Positions 3,496 to 40,683 of a DNA stretch of 64,000 nucleotides are shown here, piece after piece. The notes beneath the pieces were generated by a model that worked only from the letters and a program-made list of their open reading frames with translations, searched no databases and was not told the origin of the DNA. Source of the stretch: Escherichia phage slur16; the sequence record NC_028248.1; one strand, given 5' to 3'. A program made the translations under genes and the position numbers. The first letter of the stretch is position 1. Each line of letters begins with the position of its first letter.

Positions 3496-3557
3496 GATGT
3501 TTTTCCTCTTTATGTGGTTTTTGTTTAGTGGGCCTTTTGGCCCGTGTCATTATCTTA

Positions 3558-3830
3558 TTACTTACGGCGGCAGAATTCAAGCGTTTTTAATTGATAATCT
3601 TCCTCAGCCTGGAGTACAACCGCCTCGATCATTTCGTTGGCATTGTTGAAGCCATACCCTTTAGCGAACTCATCCGCACCACCTTCGTGATCATGTTCTG
3701 CGTTCATCGCTTCCACGAAATGGAATTCAAGATTATTGAGATAAGGGCTTGATGTTCCGTCCTCTTTTTCGATGAGATCCCAAATAGCATTAAAACGTGA
3801 TTCGACTTCTTGATTAATCCAGCTTGACAT
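3558..3830 (-). CDS. hypothetical acidic protein (90 aa)
   Basis: Track ORF; preceded on minus strand by promoter, hairpin gggcacttttgcccc and AGAGAGGAAAA before ATG. Confidence 0.5.
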   Translation of the reverse strand: MSSWINQEVESRFNAIWDLIEKEDGTSSPYLNNLEFHFVEAMNAEHDHEGGADEFAKGYGFNNANEMIEAVVLQAEEDYQLKTLEFCRRK

Positions 3831-7952: not shown

Positions 7953-8174
7953 TTAGTAGTGACGTGGTTTACAATGGCCCCCAGGAGTACCATCACTACG
8001 CACACCACAAGAAAAATTATCTCTGTCGTTGTTCGATCCATTGTTATAAAATTCCTCAAGATCAGGCTTGAAAATAAAGCGTTCGTTATTGAATCCATCA
8101 CGCCAGGCGGCTGGCTTCAAATCTTCACTAAAGGGATTAATTAACGTGGCATTATTTAAACGGTTGGCCCACAT
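7953..8174 (-). CDS. hypothetical protein (73 aa; track start 8192)
   Basis: GAGAGGAA 8 nt upstream of the ATG at 8174. Confidence 0.35.
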   Translation of the reverse strand: MWANRLNNATLINPFSEDLKPAAWRDGFNNERFIFKPDLEEFYNNGSNNDRDNFSCGVRSDGTPGGHCKPRHY

Positions 8175-8556
8175 ATTTTCTATTCCTCTCAAATAGGCGA
8201 TCCGCCTCAGTTAAACATATCTCATGGGCTTGATCTCTGGTTTTAGCCTCATCGAAAACTTGTTGTGCCAGGCTGCAGCGTAGGGAGACTGGAAGATCAC
8301 TATAATAGGCGTTGACAAACGTTTGAGCGTCGTACAGGTCTGAAAATACTTTACCCTTTCTATTATTCCCCTTGTCAACAATTGCAAGGATAACAAGCAC
8401 AATAGTTGCAACCACCCCCAGGAAAATAGATATAATAAACCATAAAAAGGCGGATCTACCCATCTTGCCAGCGATCCAGGCGTTGAACAAGGCAACTACT
8501 ACAGCCAAAATAATAAATTCCATTCTATGTACCTCTTTTGCAGTTCTGTTTAACAA
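8152..8556 (-). CDS. hypothetical membrane protein (134 aa)
   Basis: Two hydrophobic segments near the N-terminus. Confidence 0.45.
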   Translation of the reverse strand: MLNRTAKEVHRMEFIILAVVVALFNAWIAGKMGRSAFLWFIISIFLGVVATIVLVILAIVDKGNNRKGKVFSDLYDAQTFVNAYYSDLPVSLRCSLAQQVFDEAKTRDQAHEICLTEADRLFERNRKYVGQPFK

Positions 8557-31422: not shown

Positions 31423-32789
31423 ACGTCCCCCTCTTCGGCTCTGGTTTCAAAATCTTTCCTGACAATTTTGTCTAAGTCAGGGAATGTTGTATTGTAAAAC
31501 TCTACGACTCGCGGGTCAACAATAATGTCAACTTCTCTTAGTGGACGCAACAAGTTTATTCCTTGTATTGTCTTAACCCGACTCAAAGCAACATACGTCA
31601 TCCCAGGAGAGAAAGCTCCGTTCTTTCCAAGGTCCAGGTTGTAACAATCTAGCGTAAGTCCTTGACTTTTATGAGATGTTACAGCATACCCAGATTTCAG
31701 AGGAAGTTGCCTGTATGACCCAATCACTACCCTCTCTATAAACTTCTCCATCTTCCTTTCTGCAATGTTGTATCTCTGAGATGGCTTATACTCGTTATTC
31801 TCCCACAACCTTTGCTCTATGTCAACCTGTGTTCCATCTTCAAGCTCTACCACCACTGCCTTGTTCTTAAATTTAACAATTGTGGCACGTGTTCCGTTAA
31901 CATAATAAGGTACTTTGTGCGTCGGGTCAACATCGTTGGCGGTTATCATAACTTTCATGCCAATTTTCAACTTCATCTCCTGCTCAACTGGCAGGGTGGA
32001 GGGAAACTTACCCTTCATTTCACCAGTGTATACCTTCTCTGGGGCGTTGATGGCATCATAGAACCTTCTGTTCACTTCCTCTGCTTGTTTGTTGGTGGCG
32101 CAAATTGTGAGAGCATCTGTTGGTACACCACCTTTGTAACAGCGAGCATTAAGTTCTGCTACAACCTCTTTTATGCGACGACCCTCACGAACACAGTTGA
32201 GCATTGTGGCAAATCGAATAGACTCCTGTCGGAACTGATCTATTAGGGCTATGTTGTGGAGGTCAAGCTCTTTCCAAGATTCGGTATAGCAACACAGGTC
32301 CGTATGGTAGAAGTTGAAATAGGCCTCCTTCTCCATAAAAGAGACAACAGGAGGAGCCTGGTAAAAATCGCCAAACAATATGACCTGTATGCCTCCGAAA
32401 GGTTTGTCATTTTTTCGAAGGAAGCGGAGTTTCCTATCCATCTCTATAAACTTATCAGCACGGATCATAGAGATTTCATCGATAATTAGGATGGTAAATG
32501 CCTTGCTTTTCAAAGGCTTTGCTGTTTTTGCCCTTATTGCGGTCCAGTCTGACTCCATGCTCACACCTGCTGCAAGATCGAAGGTTCGGTGTGCTGTTGC
32601 TCCATTAACGTTTAAAGCGGCTACCCCTGTCGGGGCAACCGTTATGCAAGAGTCTCCATACATTGACTGGATCATGTTGATGAGGTACGTCTTCCCACAA
32701 CCTGCGGGTCCTGAAACGAAGACATTCTCACCACTCATGATTGCAACGAGGGCAGCATCTGTGCCTACATCATACTGCCCTTTTTCCAT
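31419..32789 (-). CDS. SF1 helicase, Dda/PIF1/RecD-like
   Basis: Walker A VSGPAGCGKTY; Walker B ILIIDEISMI; 456 aa. Confidence 0.75.
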   Translation of the reverse strand: MEKGQYDVGTDAALVAIMSGENVFVSGPAGCGKTYLINMIQSMYGDSCITVAPTGVAALNVNGATAHRTFDLAAGVSMESDWTAIRAKTAKPLKSKAFTILIIDEISMIRADKFIEMDRKLRFLRKNDKPFGGIQVILFGDFYQAPPVVSFMEKEAYFNFYHTDLCCYTESWKELDLHNIALIDQFRQESIRFATMLNCVREGRRIKEVVAELNARCYKGGVPTDALTICATNKQAEEVNRRFYDAINAPEKVYTGEMKGKFPSTLPVEQEMKLKIGMKVMITANDVDPTHKVPYYVNGTRATIVKFKNKAVVVELEDGTQVDIEQRLWENNEYKPSQRYNIAERKMEKFIERVVIGSYRQLPLKSGYAVTSHKSQGLTLDCYNLDLGKNGAFSPGMTYVALSRVKTIQGINLLRPLREVDIIVDPRVVEFYNTTFPDLDKIVRKDFETRAEEGDV

Positions 32790-34030
32790 TACGCCTCCTC
32801 GTAAAGAATGTCGATAGTGTTACCGTCACGATCAACTACATATTCAATAGGGTCTCCATCTTTGCGTGCTTCCGGAGCTACCACAATCTCATAGCGGCAT
32901 GCACGGCACTTAGCGCTATTGTGTTGGTATGGCACACTAACCACATCTGCAGGGTCAACCATAACAGTCATTACAGTGCCGTAGCTCTTTGCATACTCTT
33001 TGCTGGCGCAGTGTAAGCCATAGGAGCACGCAGCTTCAGGATCATCCTCTACAAAGTTACGAGGCATGGATACAAAAGCACCTTGGTATTGTGGGACTTT
33101 ACCACTGTGCCAATCCACCCACTTGCTGCCGTTAAACTGAACCCCTTTGTAGCAAATGATTCGACCATCTTCTGCAATCTGGATATCGTTGGCCTGCATA
33201 AAGTCGTAGAGCATGTTTACAGATTTTGCAGAAGGATTGCGTAGCAGGCGAACGAGGAATTTCACATAGCGGTCATCCAGTGTTCCGTCTGCATAATCTT
33301 TCTCAATTTTCTTTGCAATGGTGGATCGCATCTCTACACCGTAGTAGTAGAGCTTACCATCTTTCATGATCAGGTTGTCTGCAAGTGTGGTGAACTCATT
33401 CTTGCGTTCCAGCCAGACAAGGATTTCACCAATTGCCTCATCATATTCCTGAACAGAGATATGGTCGAAGACTTTCTGGTAAACTTCCTCACTTTCGCTG
33501 CGGCGAATTTCAAAAATGCCTTCGTTGCAGGTGATCTGGAGGAGTTCCCCGCAAATAACTACCAAAGGTTCGATGCTTCGAGTCTGTTGCTGAGACACAC
33601 TACTCACCACTTCCAGCACCGGATCTTTGACTTCTACTAAAGGTTCTTCTGACTTGATTGCTACTCCAGTGAACCCCACACCGTGAACAACACACAGTGG
33701 GTATACCACGCCCCAACGTTTAACGGAACCTTCGCCTAAATCTAAGATCATGGCGTACTTACCGTTATCTTCCAGACCGTATCGAAATAAACGGGCTTCT
33801 TCGCGGGTTTCAAAATCCTCACGGGTGTAGCAGACGCTGTCACGGTCAGGATCGAACAACTCTGGGGCACCCACTGCCAGTGTCCAGGTTGTGTCGCCTT
33901 TCTCAATAGTACATGTGAAACCCTTCTTCTCAAGTTCTGCACGGCGGTCGCGTGCTTCTTTACGAGTTTTGAAGTGTTCGTAGATGAAAATCATAACTGT
34001 CTCCTTATTTGGTGTTATTCTTTGTATCAA
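32789..34030 (-). CDS. hypothetical protein, possible rIIB-like partner of the upstream GHKL ATPase
   Basis: Positional only: immediately downstream of the rIIA-like gene with overlapping start/stop. Confidence 0.3.
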   Translation of the reverse strand: MIQRITPNKETVMIFIYEHFKTRKEARDRRAELEKKGFTCTIEKGDTTWTLAVGAPELFDPDRDSVCYTREDFETREEARLFRYGLEDNGKYAMILDLGEGSVKRWGVVYPLCVVHGVGFTGVAIKSEEPLVEVKDPVLEVVSSVSQQQTRSIEPLVVICGELLQITCNEGIFEIRRSESEEVYQKVFDHISVQEYDEAIGEILVWLERKNEFTTLADNLIMKDGKLYYYGVEMRSTIAKKIEKDYADGTLDDRYVKFLVRLLRNPSAKSVNMLYDFMQANDIQIAEDGRIICYKGVQFNGSKWVDWHSGKVPQYQGAFVSMPRNFVEDDPEAACSYGLHCASKEYAKSYGTVMTVMVDPADVVSVPYQHNSAKCRACRYEIVVAPEARKDGDPIEYVVDRDGNTIDILYEEA

Positions 34031-35987
34031 TCAGCTCACGGTATTCAATCATAGCAGGGGTGTCCCAATATTTCAAGCCTACATGCTTCAAAAGTGGATA
34101 TTTCTTTTCCAATCTTGCAATATAGGCCTTCCCGCATTTGACTCGGTTGGCGATTAAGATTTTGGCACGATGATTTAGCTCACTATGCTTCCACGCGGTG
34201 TTACCTTCCCACTTGTGGAAATGTGGCCGATAATTTCCAAAATCTTGCATGGGGATAATTTTCCCCAATTGTCTATACAGGCTGTCATATGAAGTTTCAT
34301 TTGCTGCGCGAGTCAGTAAGAATTTCCAAGCATCCTCTTTCAACAAATGTTCCACACTCTTCTCTGTAACATACTGGCAATCAGGATCAGTCCAAAGCAG
34401 ACGAGATTCTGATACCAGGTACAGATCTTCCCCTTCAGGAATCTGAAGTGCCGCACGCACACGGTCATAATTTTGCTGGTAGATGTTACTCAGCTGTCCC
34501 AGCCAACAACTTCCACGTTGGATATCACCCTCATAAGGGATGCAGTGTTTAATCTTCCGGAACTCTGCCTTAGTAATACGCTCACGGCGAAAGTAACCAT
34601 CCTTCTCAAGTTTTTTAACCCAATAACCTGGCTCATAACGAGTTTTTGTTTCACCTTTCTTGACAGGTCGGCGAGGGAGCTCTGATAACAATTTGACCGT
34701 ATCTGCAAAGAACGGGTGGTGTGCCGCTTCTTTAAACTCTTCCACCAGATCCGTGTTACGGCAATAGAAAACGTTGCGTCCGGTGATCTCGCTTAAGTAG
34801 TTACACTTATTTCGGTTATATTTGCCGTCTCCGTCGTTAAATACTAAATAGACTCCCCGCAAAAACTCTGACTTTCCATAACGAGCATAGCCTATGCGGC
34901 CTTTATTTAAGCCGCCAGCGAAAATTTCACAATCGCCTAAGTCTCCAAGTCCTGTTTCTTCCCAACGGTTCCACATAAAGTTTTTGCCGAAGATGTGTCC
35001 GAACACCCCACTATTCTTCATCATTTCACGTGCTTCTGCGGAGGTTTTTGCCGTCTCCAGTTCTGCAACAACTTCTGCCCCGCGAAGACGTATACCTTCT
35101 TTGACAAAGGCCTCCAGGCGATCCTGGAATCCACCGTCGTCATGGCCCTCTATGGTCCATTCACGCCCAGGGTTAATATTGCAATCCCCAATAGGAATTT
35201 CCACGCAGATTGCAGGGTAATCGGTCAATGTCTCCAGGAACTTAGAGCGGTAAGGTTGGTGACCCATCACAACACGGCTCTCATCAGAGCTGGTATAACC
35301 TTTCAGGATAGTCATTTTCCAACCATCTTTCTCGTAGCGATACTGCGCCTCAACCTTGTCACCTTCCAGCATCTTACTGGTCATAGGGTCGGTAACGGTA
35401 AACGGAAACTTTGCATAGCGTAGGCATGACGCAATAGCAGTGCGATATTTCAGAACATGCTCTTTCTTAACATGGAACTGAACTTTTACCCCGTTGTGCT
35501 CTTCAGTCTTCCGCTCGCGGATCTTGGTAACGTTTGGGATACCCTGATCCAAGAACAATAGATATGTGCTTTCAACACCGTTGTGCACACTGATCACATC
35601 GAAAGTGTCCACCATGCTGAACGGGGCCTTTGAACCTACACCTTTATTACCTACCAGAGCGTTGCTGTTGCGCTTGGTTGACTCCCCGAGGTTCATGAAA
35701 GTGTTGCGGACCATCTCTTCTGACATACCCAATCCAACGTCCTGCACAAAGAAGTATGGTTCAAGGTCTGTAGGGGAGTGAATGATGATCGGTACATCAC
35801 CCCGTCCAGACTCAACATGGGAGTCCACAGCATTGAAGATTGGTTCACGGCAGCTTGCCAGCACCTTATCTTCGTAAATCCCTTTAATGATTAGCCCAAA
35901 AGTCTCTTTGTTCAGAGAAATTGAGCCCCTGGTGACCTCCATATTTCCGGTTAGTACTGCTTTAGTTTCATTACTGTTTACAATCAT
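34005..35987 (-). CDS. GHKL-family ATPase, rIIA-like
   Basis: N-box EPIFNAVD; G1 box VQDVGLGM; G2 box GNKGVGSKA; 660 aa. Confidence 0.6.
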   Translation of the reverse strand: MIVNSNETKAVLTGNMEVTRGSISLNKETFGLIIKGIYEDKVLASCREPIFNAVDSHVESGRGDVPIIIHSPTDLEPYFFVQDVGLGMSEEMVRNTFMNLGESTKRNSNALVGNKGVGSKAPFSMVDTFDVISVHNGVESTYLLFLDQGIPNVTKIRERKTEEHNGVKVQFHVKKEHVLKYRTAIASCLRYAKFPFTVTDPMTSKMLEGDKVEAQYRYEKDGWKMTILKGYTSSDESRVVMGHQPYRSKFLETLTDYPAICVEIPIGDCNINPGREWTIEGHDDGGFQDRLEAFVKEGIRLRGAEVVAELETAKTSAEAREMMKNSGVFGHIFGKNFMWNRWEETGLGDLGDCEIFAGGLNKGRIGYARYGKSEFLRGVYLVFNDGDGKYNRNKCNYLSEITGRNVFYCRNTDLVEEFKEAAHHPFFADTVKLLSELPRRPVKKGETKTRYEPGYWVKKLEKDGYFRRERITKAEFRKIKHCIPYEGDIQRGSCWLGQLSNIYQQNYDRVRAALQIPEGEDLYLVSESRLLWTDPDCQYVTEKSVEHLLKEDAWKFLLTRAANETSYDSLYRQLGKIIPMQDFGNYRPHFHKWEGNTAWKHSELNHRAKILIANRVKCGKAYIARLEKKYPLLKHVGLKYWDTPAMIEYRELIDTKNNTK

Positions 35988-36484
35988 TTATTGCGCTCCT
36001 TGTAGTAGATATGACTCCCGAATTGAGCTGTCCTCTGCATCTTTTTTGCCCATTTCGGTCGTACTTTGGTTGTATGGTAGTGTGTTGCTCCACCTGTTAT
36101 GTCCATAGCCATGTATGCAACATGGTTGTTATTATAGACCTTTAGAAGCATCTTTGCAAGACTTTTAGCGTGATCCCATGAATCTTTTTCTGTCACCTTA
36201 AAAGTTTTGCCGTGGTTTGTCCACGAAAACTGGTTAGGTTGGTAGACAATCTTTCTTATAGTGTCTGGGTATTTGGGGTGAGATTTCCTGTTTAGTGTGG
36301 CAAATCCTGATGCCAGCATACCCATCGTGCCATCCCCTCTAGCCTCCCTGTAGATATTGCATGCCAGAATGTTTTCCTTAGTATCTGAGGGCTTGCAAGT
36401 ATGATATACTTTTTGTTTTGGTGCTGCAACAACAGGCAGCGATAAAAATGCGCTCAAAATAATAGCAAAGATCTTAATTTTCAC
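35984..36484 (-). CDS. secreted cell wall hydrolase, SleB / Hydrolase_2-like
   Basis: Signal peptide MKIKIFAIILSAFLSLPVVAAP; NIYREARGDG…LNR…QPNQFSW…ATHYH matches the SleB-type pattern; GTG start with GGAG 5 nt upstream. Confidence 0.5.
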   Translation of the reverse strand: MKIKIFAIILSAFLSLPVVAAPKQKVYHTCKPSDTKENILACNIYREARGDGTMGMLASGFATLNRKSHPKYPDTIRKIVYQPNQFSWTNHGKTFKVTEKDSWDHAKSLAKMLLKVYNNNHVAYMAMDITGGATHYHTTKVRPKWAKKMQRTAQFGSHIYYKERNK

Positions 36485-36504
36485 AATAACTCCAAATAGA
36501 AAAT

Positions 36505-36520
36505 CCCCGCCGAAGCGGGG
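36505..36520 (-). terminator. intrinsic terminator hairpin
   Basis: Minus strand ccccgcttcggcgggg followed by attttctattt; same 16-mer at 62751-62766. Confidence 0.55.
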
Positions 36521-36533
36521 GAGGTCTTAGAAA

Positions 36534-36914
36534 TCAATCGTAGTGTGCCAAAATCTCTCCATCGTTGCAAGTTCCCTCTACAAAGTTATGAAGATTCATG
36601 CACTCATCTTGATAGAAGAATTTACCGCTTTTCAGCCGTAAGCCAAACAACTCCGCATCTCCACGATGGCAAGCCTCTACAAGTTCATAGATTTCATACG
36701 GCAACTCTCCGTCGTCATGGAAGAACCCAGCCTTATCGTTGACATAGATGAAGAAATAATCACTGCTATCGCAAGCGTCCAATATTTCAAACCAGATTTC
36801 ATCTACATCTTTTTCTCGGATATCGATCACGCAAGTGGAGCTGCATTCGTACTCCTTCTCCGGCTCTTCGGTCAATACTACCAGGTAGTTTCCCCGCTTA
36901 CCTACTTTAGCCAT
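36534..36914 (-). CDS. hypothetical acidic protein (126 aa)
   Basis: Track ORF. Confidence 0.5.
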   Translation of the reverse strand: MAKVGKRGNYLVVLTEEPEKEYECSSTCVIDIREKDVDEIWFEILDACDSSDYFFIYVNDKAGFFHDDGELPYEIYELVEACHRGDAELFGLRLKSGKFFYQDECMNLHNFVEGTCNDGEILAHYD

Positions 36915-36923
36915 ACAACCTCC

Positions 36924-38108
36924 TCAAGCTTTAGCCAAAATGGCGCTAAACTCTTCACCAAACTCTTTTACAATCTTCATCAGGTTTGGGTATGCTTTAA
37001 TCAGCTGAGCAACAATCTTGTCACGCCCTTTACCGATAAGCAAGGCATTTCCTAAGGCATTAGGTTTCATCATCGCCATAAAGACTGAGAATACAAAATC
37101 TCGGTTCTCGTCCTTGAAATTTTCCCAAAGGAAATCGAGGAAGTTTGCCACACAGCTAACAAGATCTTCGTCGGAGATACTTGCATTTTCCATCATATTA
37201 CGAATAGCGATACAACCTTCAGACCCAAGAATCCACAAGATGTCTGGCTGTTTAGGACCTATGTATTCTTTGCAACCCCCTGCCATAATCCGACCGATTT
37301 CCGGTAAGTTGCGTTTCTTGGTGTGGTAGGTCCAGATCTCTACCGCTGCAGTGTGACCAATAGCACCTTGCAGAAGAACACGGGCCATAGCGTCAGAAAT
37401 AATACCGCTGTCAAAATCGTGCAAGATGTCAGATGCAGCAACCCAAGATCGCGGTGTGGCAAAAGATGGACAATTAATCTCAGCCATAGCCTCATAATTA
37501 TCGATAGCTGATGGAACTCTTTTCAGATACCCAATTACAGAGGAGTGCACCCCATTGAGGAATGCGTAGTCCTCAATAAACACCTCTGCATTGCTTGTAA
37601 CCTCTACAATGATAAAGCGGTTAGCCAGAGGAGCTTCGAGCGCCGAAAGAACAGCACCATCTGTAGAACGGTTACCCGCAGCCACAAAAACAGAGCCTTT
37701 AGGGAATGCATAGGTGCCGCACTTGTGGTCGAGCATAATCTGCATTGCAACCTTTTGCAGATAGTTATCTGCATGAGTAAGCTCATCCAGAAAGATAATT
37801 CCACCCCAGTTCGGATCTGCAGGCCAAAATTCTGGAATTGCAAACACTGTACGTGTAGTTCCATCAGCTTCTACAGGGATAGGTAGCCCAGATAAGTCGG
37901 CAGGATCTTTATCTGACAGCCGCACGTCAACCAGGTTGTCATCTCGCTCACCGAACATATTATCGGCGATCTGCTTCATCACCTGGCTCTTTCCCACGCC
38001 CATTGGTCCTAAAATCAGGACAGATCGGTTATGACGCTGGGCAAACTGAATGATAGCTGGCAACTCACGGACAGTGATTTGACCACTTTCAAATACGTTT
38101 CTTGACAT
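36924..38108 (-). CDS. AAA+ ATPase, MoxR / CobS-like
   Basis: Walker A LILGPMGVGKSQ; Walker B GIIFLDELTHA; 394 aa. Confidence 0.7.
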   Translation of the reverse strand: MSRNVFESGQITVRELPAIIQFAQRHNRSVLILGPMGVGKSQVMKQIADNMFGERDDNLVDVRLSDKDPADLSGLPIPVEADGTTRTVFAIPEFWPADPNWGGIIFLDELTHADNYLQKVAMQIMLDHKCGTYAFPKGSVFVAAGNRSTDGAVLSALEAPLANRFIIVEVTSNAEVFIEDYAFLNGVHSSVIGYLKRVPSAIDNYEAMAEINCPSFATPRSWVAASDILHDFDSGIISDAMARVLLQGAIGHTAAVEIWTYHTKKRNLPEIGRIMAGGCKEYIGPKQPDILWILGSEGCIAIRNMMENASISDEDLVSCVANFLDFLWENFKDENRDFVFSVFMAMMKPNALGNALLIGKGRDKIVAQLIKAYPNLMKIVKEFGEEFSAILAKA

Positions 38109-40604: not shown

Positions 40605-40683
40605 AAGTAAGTGCTCCTATGTTAGTTTTCTTTCGAATGGGTGCACTATATTGTGGAGTTAGAGTAAAGTCAACACGTTTTTG

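Follow-up and report, generated by a model that had tools for sequence, protein, structure and literature searches.

The 64-kb stretch of DNA analysed here (hereafter the window) is 100% identical to Escherichia phage slur12 (Vequintavirus). On its minus strand, the ORF at 35984..36484, located exactly where the first-pass annotation had placed a cell wall hydrolase, runs from a GTG start to a TGA stop and encodes a protein of 166 aa. This product, which carries a Hydrolase_2 domain, is 99–100% identical to its Vequintavirus orthologues of the same length. One of them is rV5 gene 2, whose annotation as "cell wall hydrolase" dates from 2013, and the slur12 GenBank record labels its orthologue likewise (CUL03211.1). 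The gene is real and was already known in rV5-like coliphages, and filing the ORF under it is of small practical value. It lies, as first described, between an rIIA-like gene and a MoxR block: the next gene of its transcription unit is annotated as a rIIA homologue (34005..35987, minus strand; PHROG 612, E=1.8e-124), and a MoxR-type ATPase gene (36924..38108) is found upstream, beyond an ORF (36534..36914) for an acidic protein of 126 aa, a T5.083 homologue listed in rV5 Table S3. The hydrolase gene sits in the early/replication gene block, outside the structural module. The 126-aa ORF was considered as an inhibitor or chaperone partner and rejected, since none of the T5-like, phAPEC8-like, Certrevirus, Mydovirus and Pakpunavirus loci retrieved has a homologue of it beside the hydrolase gene.

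A strong intrinsic terminator (CCCCGC-TTCG-GCGGGG followed by ATTTTCTATTT; 36495..36520, minus strand), identical to t003 of rV5 (−16 kcal/mol), is present directly 5′ of the hydrolase gene. It ends about 10 nt 5′ of the Shine-Dalgarno sequence GGAG (36490..36493, minus strand; 5 nt upstream of the GTG) and about 20 nt 5′ of the start. This terminator is kept in four Vequintavirinae genera; KpS8, EspYZU15, phiTE and PAK_P4 likewise have a terminator immediately before the gene. A dedicated promoter for the hydrolase was rejected, there being no space between terminator and start, and in the rV5 study no promoter was predicted from t003 to t232/P231. Two sigma-70-like matches (36486..36459 and 36159..36131) overlap or fall within the ORF and were given no weight; promoter-like matches in the region are at chance level (16 observed, 13.5 expected). 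A sigma-70-type promoter (TTGACT-17-TATAGT; 40645..40673, minus strand) corresponding to P010 of rV5 opens the minus-strand unit to which the hydrolase gene belongs. At the 3′ end of the hydrolase gene, the stop codon TGA overlaps the rIIA start codon ATG (ATGA, 35984..35987, minus strand), which indicates translational coupling.

Together with the weak start codon, the terminator suggests that expression of the hydrolase is throttled to a low level. The start codon is GTG or TTG in family members from Vequintavirus, Mydovirus, Seunavirus and Stephanstirmvirinae; as a background, 60 of the 67 CDS in 46 kb of a sister phage begin with ATG. ATG starts of homologues in three lineages weaken this argument. 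Since rIIA, rIIB and a helicase gene also lie behind the terminator, it may regulate the whole block, not specifically the hydrolase. The phAPEC8-like homologues, which have a sigma-70-like promoter directly upstream instead of depending on read-through alone, also speak against expression being minimal in every case. The literature searches yielded no usable transcriptome data on the hydrolase gene from Vequintavirus or T5-like phages.

The SleB/Hydrolase_2-type pattern reported by the first-pass annotation was borne out by a profile HMM search, in which the Pfam Hydrolase_2 profile (PF07486) matched the protein with 70.4 bits (E=2.1e-19) over profile positions 2–100 of 100, the gathering cut-off being 27 bits. 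The SleB-type catalytic domain spans residues about 36–163 (35996..36379, minus strand). In phmmer searches the protein matched the SleB structures 4f55 and 4fet, with Glu47 (codon GAG at 36344..36346, minus strand, within YREARGD) aligned to the catalytic glutamate of SleB (the E of YGESRGE). This residue is almost invariant in the alignment of homologues, and 139 of the 150 family representatives contain the catalytic-Glu motif. The predicted structure model adopts the SleB catalytic-domain fold, with the helices bearing the active site modelled at pLDDT >90 and residues 1–20 as the sole low-confidence part.

Bacillus SleB is a germination-specific lytic transglycosylase of the spore cortex, a structure that does not exist in the host E. 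coli. Its N-terminal peptidoglycan-binding domain is absent from the phage protein, which has in its model an extra helical hairpin (residues about 100–127); with the SleB equivalog profile TIGR02869 (cut-off 236.5 bits) it scored only 48.3 bits, over profile positions 83–201 only. SleB needs muramic-delta-lactam, which is absent from E. coli murein, so that substrate recognition by the phage enzyme must differ from that of SleB and its activity on ordinary peptidoglycan is an assumption. From sequence, we infer that it would cleave the glycan strands of E. coli murein as a lytic transglycosylase. Literature searches for phage lysins of the Hydrolase_2/SleB-like type with experimental characterisation yielded annotations and surveys only. 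The missing lactam, together with an Asp at the position equivalent to the second acid of the SleB EARGE motif, could alternatively point to a catalytically inert peptidoglycan-binding protein that kept the fold and lost the activity. We regard this as highly improbable, given that the catalytic Glu is retained both here and in most representatives, that the active-site helices are confidently modelled, and that the Certrevirus orthologue CB7_83, for which a signal peptide was also reported, has been described as toxic upon expression in E. coli (a remark, with data not shown in the source).

The cleavable-looking signal peptide noted earlier was recovered by a rule-based analysis of the sequence. 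Residues 1–20 (MKIKIFAIILSAFLSLPVVA; 36425..36484, minus strand) comprise an n-region MKIK of charge +2, an h-region of 12 residues (IFAIILSAFLSL; Kyte-Doolittle 2.71) and a c-region with Pro17 and a single −3/−1 site of signal peptidase I (SPase I) type, VVA↓APK, after residue 20. They thus display every feature of the type I Sec signal peptides that we looked for: a positively charged n-region, an h-region of 10–15 residues, a helix breaker, small residues at −3/−1 and no Pro at +1. The prediction agrees with the low pLDDT of this segment and with the canonical AXA sites that homologues have there. Export and cleavage of the protein are therefore predicted from its N-terminus and its relatives. 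All lineages examined have an N-terminal export signal, which looks cleavable in Vequintavirus, Mydovirus, Seunavirus, Certrevirus, Stephanstirmvirinae and T5-like homologues and includes a possible lipobox in some metagenomic relatives. Sites seen in homologues include VLA↓K, ALA↓K, SQA↓S and SFA↓A. Among the 150 nearest cluster representatives (50% identity), obtained by an exhaustive representative search (a word-indexed protein search gave just 10 homologues), 134 have a hydrophobic N-terminus, followed in 128 of these by a SPase I or lipobox-like site. The homologues also share conserved Cys pairs, as typical of periplasmic proteins.

A virion-associated lysin, digesting peptidoglycan locally at DNA injection, was considered and rejected. 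Hydrolase_2 domains do occur elsewhere inside large virion or ejection proteins, e.g., in the "DarB-like" matches from Agrobacterium and Ochrobactrum phages. In the present case, a cleavable Sec signal peptide would remove the protein from the cytoplasm, where virions assemble, the gene lies outside the structural module, and Vequintaviruses possess other candidates for a baseplate or tail lysozyme. The part of the rV5 virion mass spectrometry table that we examined contains zero peptides of the hydrolase, which is weak evidence in the same direction. We consider such a role extremely unlikely.

The first-pass annotation had seen no other lysin, and had raised on this basis the possibility of a secreted endolysin that needs no canonical holin. 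The observation holds for the window: tblastn searches, whose queries included the Vequintavirus endolysin, tail lysozyme and spanins, found only a holin candidate (8155..8523, minus strand), 97% identical to the "putative holin" bas56_0110, which is given here for context and has no link to the hydrolase. It does not hold for the genome. The slur12 record contains at 36596-37066 a gene for a 156-aa "Phage lysozyme" of the lambda R type, adjoining the DNA ligase gene and corresponding to rV5 gp89; this canonical lysozyme is also present in AlexBoehm (PHROG 90). Its orthologue LysECP26, 98% identical to the rV5 endolysin, has been purified and lyses Gram-negative cells whose outer membrane has been permeabilised. 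An i-/o-spanin pair is located beside the terminase in Vequintaviruses. The apparent lack of another lysin was an artefact of the 64-kb window, and the impression of a phage without a normal endolysin is corrected.

That the hydrolase is nonetheless the principal endolysin, exported by Sec and lysing the cell without a canonical holin, appears very unlikely to us. With its predicted signal peptide it would reach the periplasm unaided, PHROG 938 and several GenBank records call its homologues "endolysin", and in Mydovirus, Seunavirus and Certrevirus a small holin/pinholin-like ORF with two transmembrane domains (2-TMD) directly follows the homologue. Against this, the genome encodes the lambda R-like lysozyme, whose orthologue is a proven and potent muralytic enzyme, together with spanins and a holin candidate. 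Moreover, no small membrane-protein gene adjoins the hydrolase gene of slur12, and no homologue of the KpS8, EspYZU15 or phiTE 2-TMD ORF was found in the window (no match better than E=0.4). A sigma-70 early unit, behind a terminator, is also an unexpected place for a gene that times lysis. The hydrolase is not a canonical endolysin, i.e., a holin-linked main muralytic enzyme, because a separate endolysin exists, no membrane-protein gene adjoins it, the holin candidate is 27 kb away and the spanins are by the terminase. The other option named by the first-pass annotation, namely that the lysin plays a separate role, agrees better with the evidence than a sole or holin-free endolysin does.

Known exported endolysins include Lys44 of Oenococcus phage fOg44, which has a signal peptide, and the SAR endolysins P1 Lyz and R21 of phage 21, with pinholins. 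They reach the wall via Sec without a hole made by a holin, act as sole endolysins and are gated by membrane depolarisation. The slur12 hydrolase belongs to a different catalytic family and coexists with a separate cytoplasmic endolysin. It is not of the SAR type, which has a weakly hydrophobic, Gly/Ala/Ser-rich and uncleaved transmembrane domain, because its h-region is strongly hydrophobic (rich in I, F and L) and followed by a good SPase I site. The 2-TMD ORF of the sister genera does resemble a pinholin partner. The Pakpunavirus protein PAK_P4 gp154, the product that bears the label endolysin in the 6.4 kb of its record that we examined, shares the catalytic family (domain identity about 35%) and, as in slur12, is encoded directly downstream of a terminator, among DNA-metabolism genes; its hydrophobic N-terminus, in which the n-region is acidic and a SPase I site is missing, looks uncleaved and SAR- or anchor-like.

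Orthologues are present throughout Vequintavirinae, e.g., slur12 CUL03211.1, AlexBoehm bas56_0063, PVP-SE1 SleB, Cronobacter phage CR3_087 and Pectobacterium phage CB7_83 and phiTE_033. Nothing of substance differs within the genus, and rV5 gene 2 shares both the position upstream of rIIA and the terminator. In the other genera the orthologues are 44–53% identical to the slur12 protein, likewise with a signal peptide and preceded by a terminator. Mydovirus, Seunavirus and Certrevirus have, between the hydrolase gene and the next gene, the 2-TMD ORF that is lacking in slur12; Certrevirus has no rIIA/rIIB. Exported homologues also exist in T5-like, phAPEC8-like and many other phages. Those of the T5-like (AKFV33 ORF81, IrisVonRoten bas32_0074) and phAPEC8-like groups (muut_197, tuntematon_109) are Hydrolase_2 proteins of 149–173 aa with cleavable signal peptides, encoded among early or DNA-metabolism genes and just 34–40% identical to the slur12 hydrolase; the disulfide pattern differs in T5-like homologues. 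T5-like phages have a separate lysozyme and holin besides the early-region SleB-like gene, and a Phapecoctavirus genome note mentions two lytic proteins in its abstract.

We favour, as probable, a small accessory periplasmic murein hydrolase that is auxiliary to lysis and distinct from the main endolysin. Its mRNA would originate from the early host-sigma-70 promoter at 40673..40645, the hydrolase gene being reached only by terminator read-through, and translation would begin at the weak GTG codon. The 20-residue signal peptide would direct Sec export and be cut at VVA↓AP, releasing a basic mature protein of about 146 aa that would fold in the periplasm as a SleB-type lytic transglycosylase, with a probable Cys30–Cys42 disulfide. 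Glu47 would act as the single catalytic acid in the cleavage of MurNAc-GlcNAc bonds of the host peptidoglycan. An enzyme that gets to the wall unaided by a holin has to be kept at a low dose, and the terminator and weak start codon may act as a throttle. The sacculus, nicked or thinned during infection, would then yield faster or more completely to holin-timed lysis by the cytoplasmic lambda R-like endolysin and the spanins.

Early and continuous export of a mere lysis helper would risk premature lysis, and a non-lytic role fits equally well in this respect. The protein could be an exported murein remodeller that makes no contribution to final lysis, for instance trimming nascent or septal glycan (division block, cell enlargement), releasing anhydromuropeptides or blocking superinfection via an altered wall. 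Its place in an early unit with host-takeover and replication genes, coupled to rIIA/rIIB, its low-dose design and the fact that no fewer than three unrelated groups (rV5-like, T5-like and phAPEC8-like) keep such genes in addition to a full set of canonical lysis genes are all consistent with this proposal. The toxicity of the CB7_83 orthologue indicates in contrast an ability to damage cells, and the holin-like ORF after the homologue in three sister genera points to lysis. We consider a purely non-lytic function possible, though rather unlikely, and retain the accessory lysis enzyme as our interpretation.

The block formed by the terminator, the hydrolase gene, the 2-TMD ORF where present, rIIA and rIIB is conserved across Vequintavirinae. 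A SPOR (peptidoglycan-binding) match in rIIB, considered as a possible tie between rII and the hydrolase, proved partial: the N-terminus of rIIB, taken in isolation, matches half of the profile with 23 bits, and the whole protein scores 19.8 bits, below the cut-off of 21; no SPOR match was found in the KpS8 rIIB, nor any PDB sequence match for the rIIB N-terminus. Other annotators have called rIIA/rIIB "membrane integrity protectors". Conceivably, this block could be a second, early lysis-control cassette, in which a periplasmic transglycosylase acting independently of the holin would be checked by membrane energisation and the co-translated rII proteins would prevent premature lysis. We find this unlikely; if true, rIIA/rIIB would gain a definite partner and, outside T4, a function open to testing. 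Small, basic, self-exporting enzymes of this kind might interest engineers of lysins against Gram-negative bacteria. For the phages themselves, it is of modest interest that an early exported SleB-type hydrolase is retained beside a complete holin/endolysin/spanin set in several groups of large virulent phages (rV5-like, T5-like and phAPEC8-like) that infect Gram-negative bacteria and are unrelated to one another.

The ORF to which the first-pass annotation had assigned a cell wall hydrolase lies exactly at window positions 35984..36484 on the minus strand and encodes a protein of 166 aa, with a GTG start and a TGA stop. The GTG, preceded at 5 nt by a Shine-Dalgarno motif (GGAG), is the true start, since there is no further in-frame start upstream and the next in-frame Met (residue 54) lies past the active-site motif. 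The expected SleB/Hydrolase_2-type pattern was recovered by profile search, with a score of 70.4 bits (E = 2.1e-19) against Pfam Hydrolase_2 (PF07486; gathering cut-off 27). The protein also matched PHROG 938 'endolysin' (E = 1.7e-27), and a phmmer search of PDB sequences retrieved only two crystallised SleB catalytic domains (4f55 and 4fet), with Glu47 in the motif YREARGD aligned to the Glu of SleB YGESRGE. The AlphaFold model, based on an alignment of 11 sequences, has a mean pLDDT of 88.3. Profile score, fold and catalytic residue thus place the protein in Hydrolase_2, but not in SleB proper (48 bits, where the SleB equivalog model requires 236.5), and it contains no peptidoglycan-binding domain. 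That it could be an inert binding protein is contradicted by the conserved Glu and by the toxicity of the orthologous SleB-like protein upon expression in E. coli, as reported in the CB7 paper (data not shown there).

By rule-based analysis, the N-terminus is organised like a type I signal peptide: an n-region MKIK of +2 charge, a hydrophobic core IFAIILSAFLSL (Kyte-Doolittle 2.71), Pro17 and a single -3/-1 site, VVA|APK, in agreement with the cleavable-looking signal peptide noted at first pass. Residues 1-20 are also the sole low-confidence stretch of the AlphaFold model. The signal is strongly hydrophobic and predicted to be cleavable, whereas SAR endolysins have a weak, uncleaved anchor; the hydrolase is therefore not a SAR endolysin. 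We compared flanks and N-termini of homologous loci from eight phages, and an N-terminal export signal was present in every homologue. Putative cleavage sites are VLA|KD in KpS8, ALA|KE in phiTE, SQA|SH in the T5-like phage IrisVonRoten, SFA|AT in the metagenomic P0002 and AQA|EA or VVA| in the phAPEC8-like phages muut and tuntematon; the N-terminal signals of P0006, P0007 and P0009 terminate with ...TASC, which could be a lipobox. In PAK_P4, a Pseudomonas phage of the genus Pakpunavirus, the signal is of another type: the hydrophobic N-terminus of its Hydrolase_2 'endolysin' (L008, 2824-3384, plus strand) has an acidic n-region, lacks an SPase I site and is more suggestive of a membrane anchor or SAR domain than of a cleavable signal peptide. 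The Cys30/Cys42 pair is kept in Vequintavirinae and phAPEC8-like proteins, and a different Cys pair is found in T5-like proteins; such conserved pairs are typical of periplasmic proteins.

Small exported hydrolases of this kind form a large class that is already known. By tblastn, the Hydrolase_2 domain was detected in 1264 phage records, with hosts including Escherichia, Salmonella, Pseudomonas, Klebsiella and Vibrio, and phmmer, run exhaustively against 1.84 billion cluster representatives, yielded 11,334 matches at E<=1e-3 (2,946 at E<=1e-10). Of the 150 best representatives, 139 retain the catalytic motif x-E-[A/S] and 134 carry a hydrophobic N-terminal segment, followed in 128 of these 134 by an SPase I or lipobox-like site. 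According to a published survey, Hydrolase_2 is one of the catalytic domains prevailing in lysins of phages that infect Gram-negative bacteria. Both the hydrolase and its signal peptide are already known from the literature, as shown by the annotation 'Cell Wall Hydrolase' (CUL03211.1) in Escherichia phage slur12 (LN881735.1, Vequintavirus), by Table S3 of the 2013 genome paper on the type phage rV5 (gene 2, 'cell wall hydrolase', 166 aa, pI 10.0, PF07486) and by the CB7 (Certrevirus) paper, which describes a signal peptide in the SleB-like protein of CB7 and homologues of this protein in all Vequintavirinae genera. Between window positions 33000 and 39000, the sequence is 100% identical to slur12 and 96-98% identical to about 100 further rV5-like phages. 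Over the same 6 kb, 16 'Campylobacter phage' records (MG0656xx, host C. jejuni) show 96-97% identity to the window; these genomes are probably mislabelled or contaminant.

The first-pass annotation had seen no other lysin and proposed a secreted endolysin acting without a canonical holin. The former holds for the window, where tblastn with the Vequintavirus endolysin, tail lysozyme, baseplate 'hydrolase', 'glycosidase' and spanins detected no second lysin, but not for the genome, of which the window is less than half. In slur12, a 156-aa 'Phage lysozyme' without N-terminal hydrophobic segment is encoded at positions 36596-37066 of the record, adjoining the DNA ligase; it corresponds to AlexBoehm bas56_0202 (PHROG 90 endolysin, E = 3e-56) and to rV5 gp89, 'an obvious lysin' in the rV5 paper. 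Its orthologue LysECP26, which shares 98% identity with the rV5 endolysin and 62% with lambda lysozyme, lysed 29 of 29 Gram-negative strains as purified protein after outer-membrane removal. Vequintaviruses also encode an i-/o-spanin pair adjoining the terminase and a holin candidate. Lysis genes are scattered in this group, and little can therefore be read from how far the hydrolase lies from the tail module. The only holin candidate found by tblastn in the window (8155..8523, minus strand) is 97% identical to the 123-aa 'putative holin' bas56_0110 and matches no Pfam or NCBIfam profile; the holin proposed in the rV5 paper is another protein, gp129 (78 aa). With a canonical lysozyme, spanins and a holin candidate in the group, the hydrolase is a putative extra muralytic enzyme: the predicted secreted hydrolase stands, the sole or holin-free endolysin does not. 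Its predicted route to the wall is like that of secretory endolysins, such as fOg44 Lys44; unlike Lys44, it shares its genome with a cytoplasmic endolysin. T5-like phages, similarly, combine a Hydrolase_2 gene in their early region with a distinct lysozyme and a holin.

The genomic and regulatory context also contradicts a sole endolysin. The gene is part of a long minus-strand transcription unit headed by a sigma-70-type promoter (TTGACT-17-TATAGT, 40673..40645, minus strand), identical to rV5 P010 and forming one arm of a bidirectional promoter shared with a Srd-like anti-sigma gene. The gene order runs from a 299-aa ORF to the MoxR ATPase, a 126-aa ORF, a terminator, the hydrolase, rIIA, rIIB and helicase, and on to the primase/helicase and DNA polymerase. 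The strong intrinsic terminator (CCCCGC-UUCG-GCGGGG followed by AUUUUCUAUUU; 36520..36495, minus strand) is identical to rV5 t003 (-16 kcal/mol); measured from the start codon, its hairpin stops at about 20 nt and its T-run, beside the Shine-Dalgarno, at about 10 nt upstream. The rV5 authors predicted the next minus-strand promoter only at P231, past terminator t232; on their predictions, hydrolase, rIIA, rIIB and helicase would be expressed by read-through only. The stop codon of the hydrolase and the start codon of rIIA overlap within ATGA (35984-35987), an arrangement indicative of translational coupling.

Several features of this unit, and one of its counterpart in the sister phage AlexBoehm, were observed in passing. 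A sigma-70-like site within the hydrolase ORF (TTGCAA-17-TATAAT, 36131-36159, minus strand; 10/12 matches, in a region where promoter-like sites occur at chance level) could serve as a promoter for rIIA that is independent of the hydrolase start. The acidic 126-aa ORF (36534-36914, minus strand; PHROG 12370, function unknown) has a T5 homologue (T5.083) according to rV5 Table S3; in the T5-like locus that was analysed, it is not a neighbour of the SleB-like gene. In the rIIB homologue (32789-34030, minus strand), the N-terminal ~45 residues match half of the peptidoglycan-binding SPOR profile (23 bits for the isolated N-terminus, 19.8 for the whole protein, cut-off 21) and precede a second, similar F-x-T-R-x-E-A-R repeat; KpS8 rIIB has no SPOR match. 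The AlexBoehm DNA polymerase (L001, 10263-13882, minus strand; about 23-27 kb in the window) is annotated as two joined segments flanking a homing endonuclease ORF.

A GC-rich hairpin with a T-run directly 5' of the ribosome site is shared by Vequintavirus, Mydovirus, Seunavirus, Certrevirus and Pakpunavirus, and two of these hairpins are annotated as terminators by the depositors; in phAPEC8-like phages, the hairpin is followed by a conserved promoter (TTGCAA-17-TACAAT/TATACT). The hydrolase starts with GTG in Vequintavirus, TTG in Mydovirus, Seunavirus and both Stephanstirmvirinae genera, and ATG in Certrevirus, Pakpunavirus and T5-like phages; three of the five terminator-bearing genera thus use GTG or TTG. 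By comparison, ATG is the start codon of 60 of the 67 CDS annotated over 46 kb of AlexBoehm. This pattern is suggestive of, rather than conclusive for, selection for weak initiation, and its combination with the terminator looks like a conserved low-expression design.

The protein is very probably an exported Hydrolase_2 murein hydrolase. It would be exported by Sec, be cleaved between residues 20 and 21, form a disulfide and cleave E. coli murein as a lytic transglycosylase with Glu47 as catalytic acid. A virion lysin is contradicted by the signal peptide and gene location and, weakly, by the lack of hydrolase peptides in the examined part of the rV5 virion MS table. A role accessory to lysis can be proposed tentatively: expressed at a low level limited by read-through, the enzyme would weaken the sacculus and make holin-timed lysis faster or more complete. 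Non-lytic murein remodelling appears rather unlikely. In KpS8, EspYZU15 and phiTE, a 51-65-aa ORF with two hydrophobic segments lies directly 3' of the hydrolase gene or overlaps it (L004 3536-3691, L013 about 3539-3709 and L005 3528-3725, all plus strand; unannotated in the first two), and is followed in KpS8 by rIIA-rIIB-helicase; it is absent from slur12 and has no homologue in the window. Judging from its sequence it is holin- or pinholin-like, and the CB7 authors proposed a class II holin. That the hydrolase, rIIA and rIIB, together with this ORF where it is present, form an early lysis-control cassette is improbable; if true, it would give the rII proteins a concrete partner. Enzymes of this kind are retained in the early regions of several large virulent phages that are unrelated to one another.
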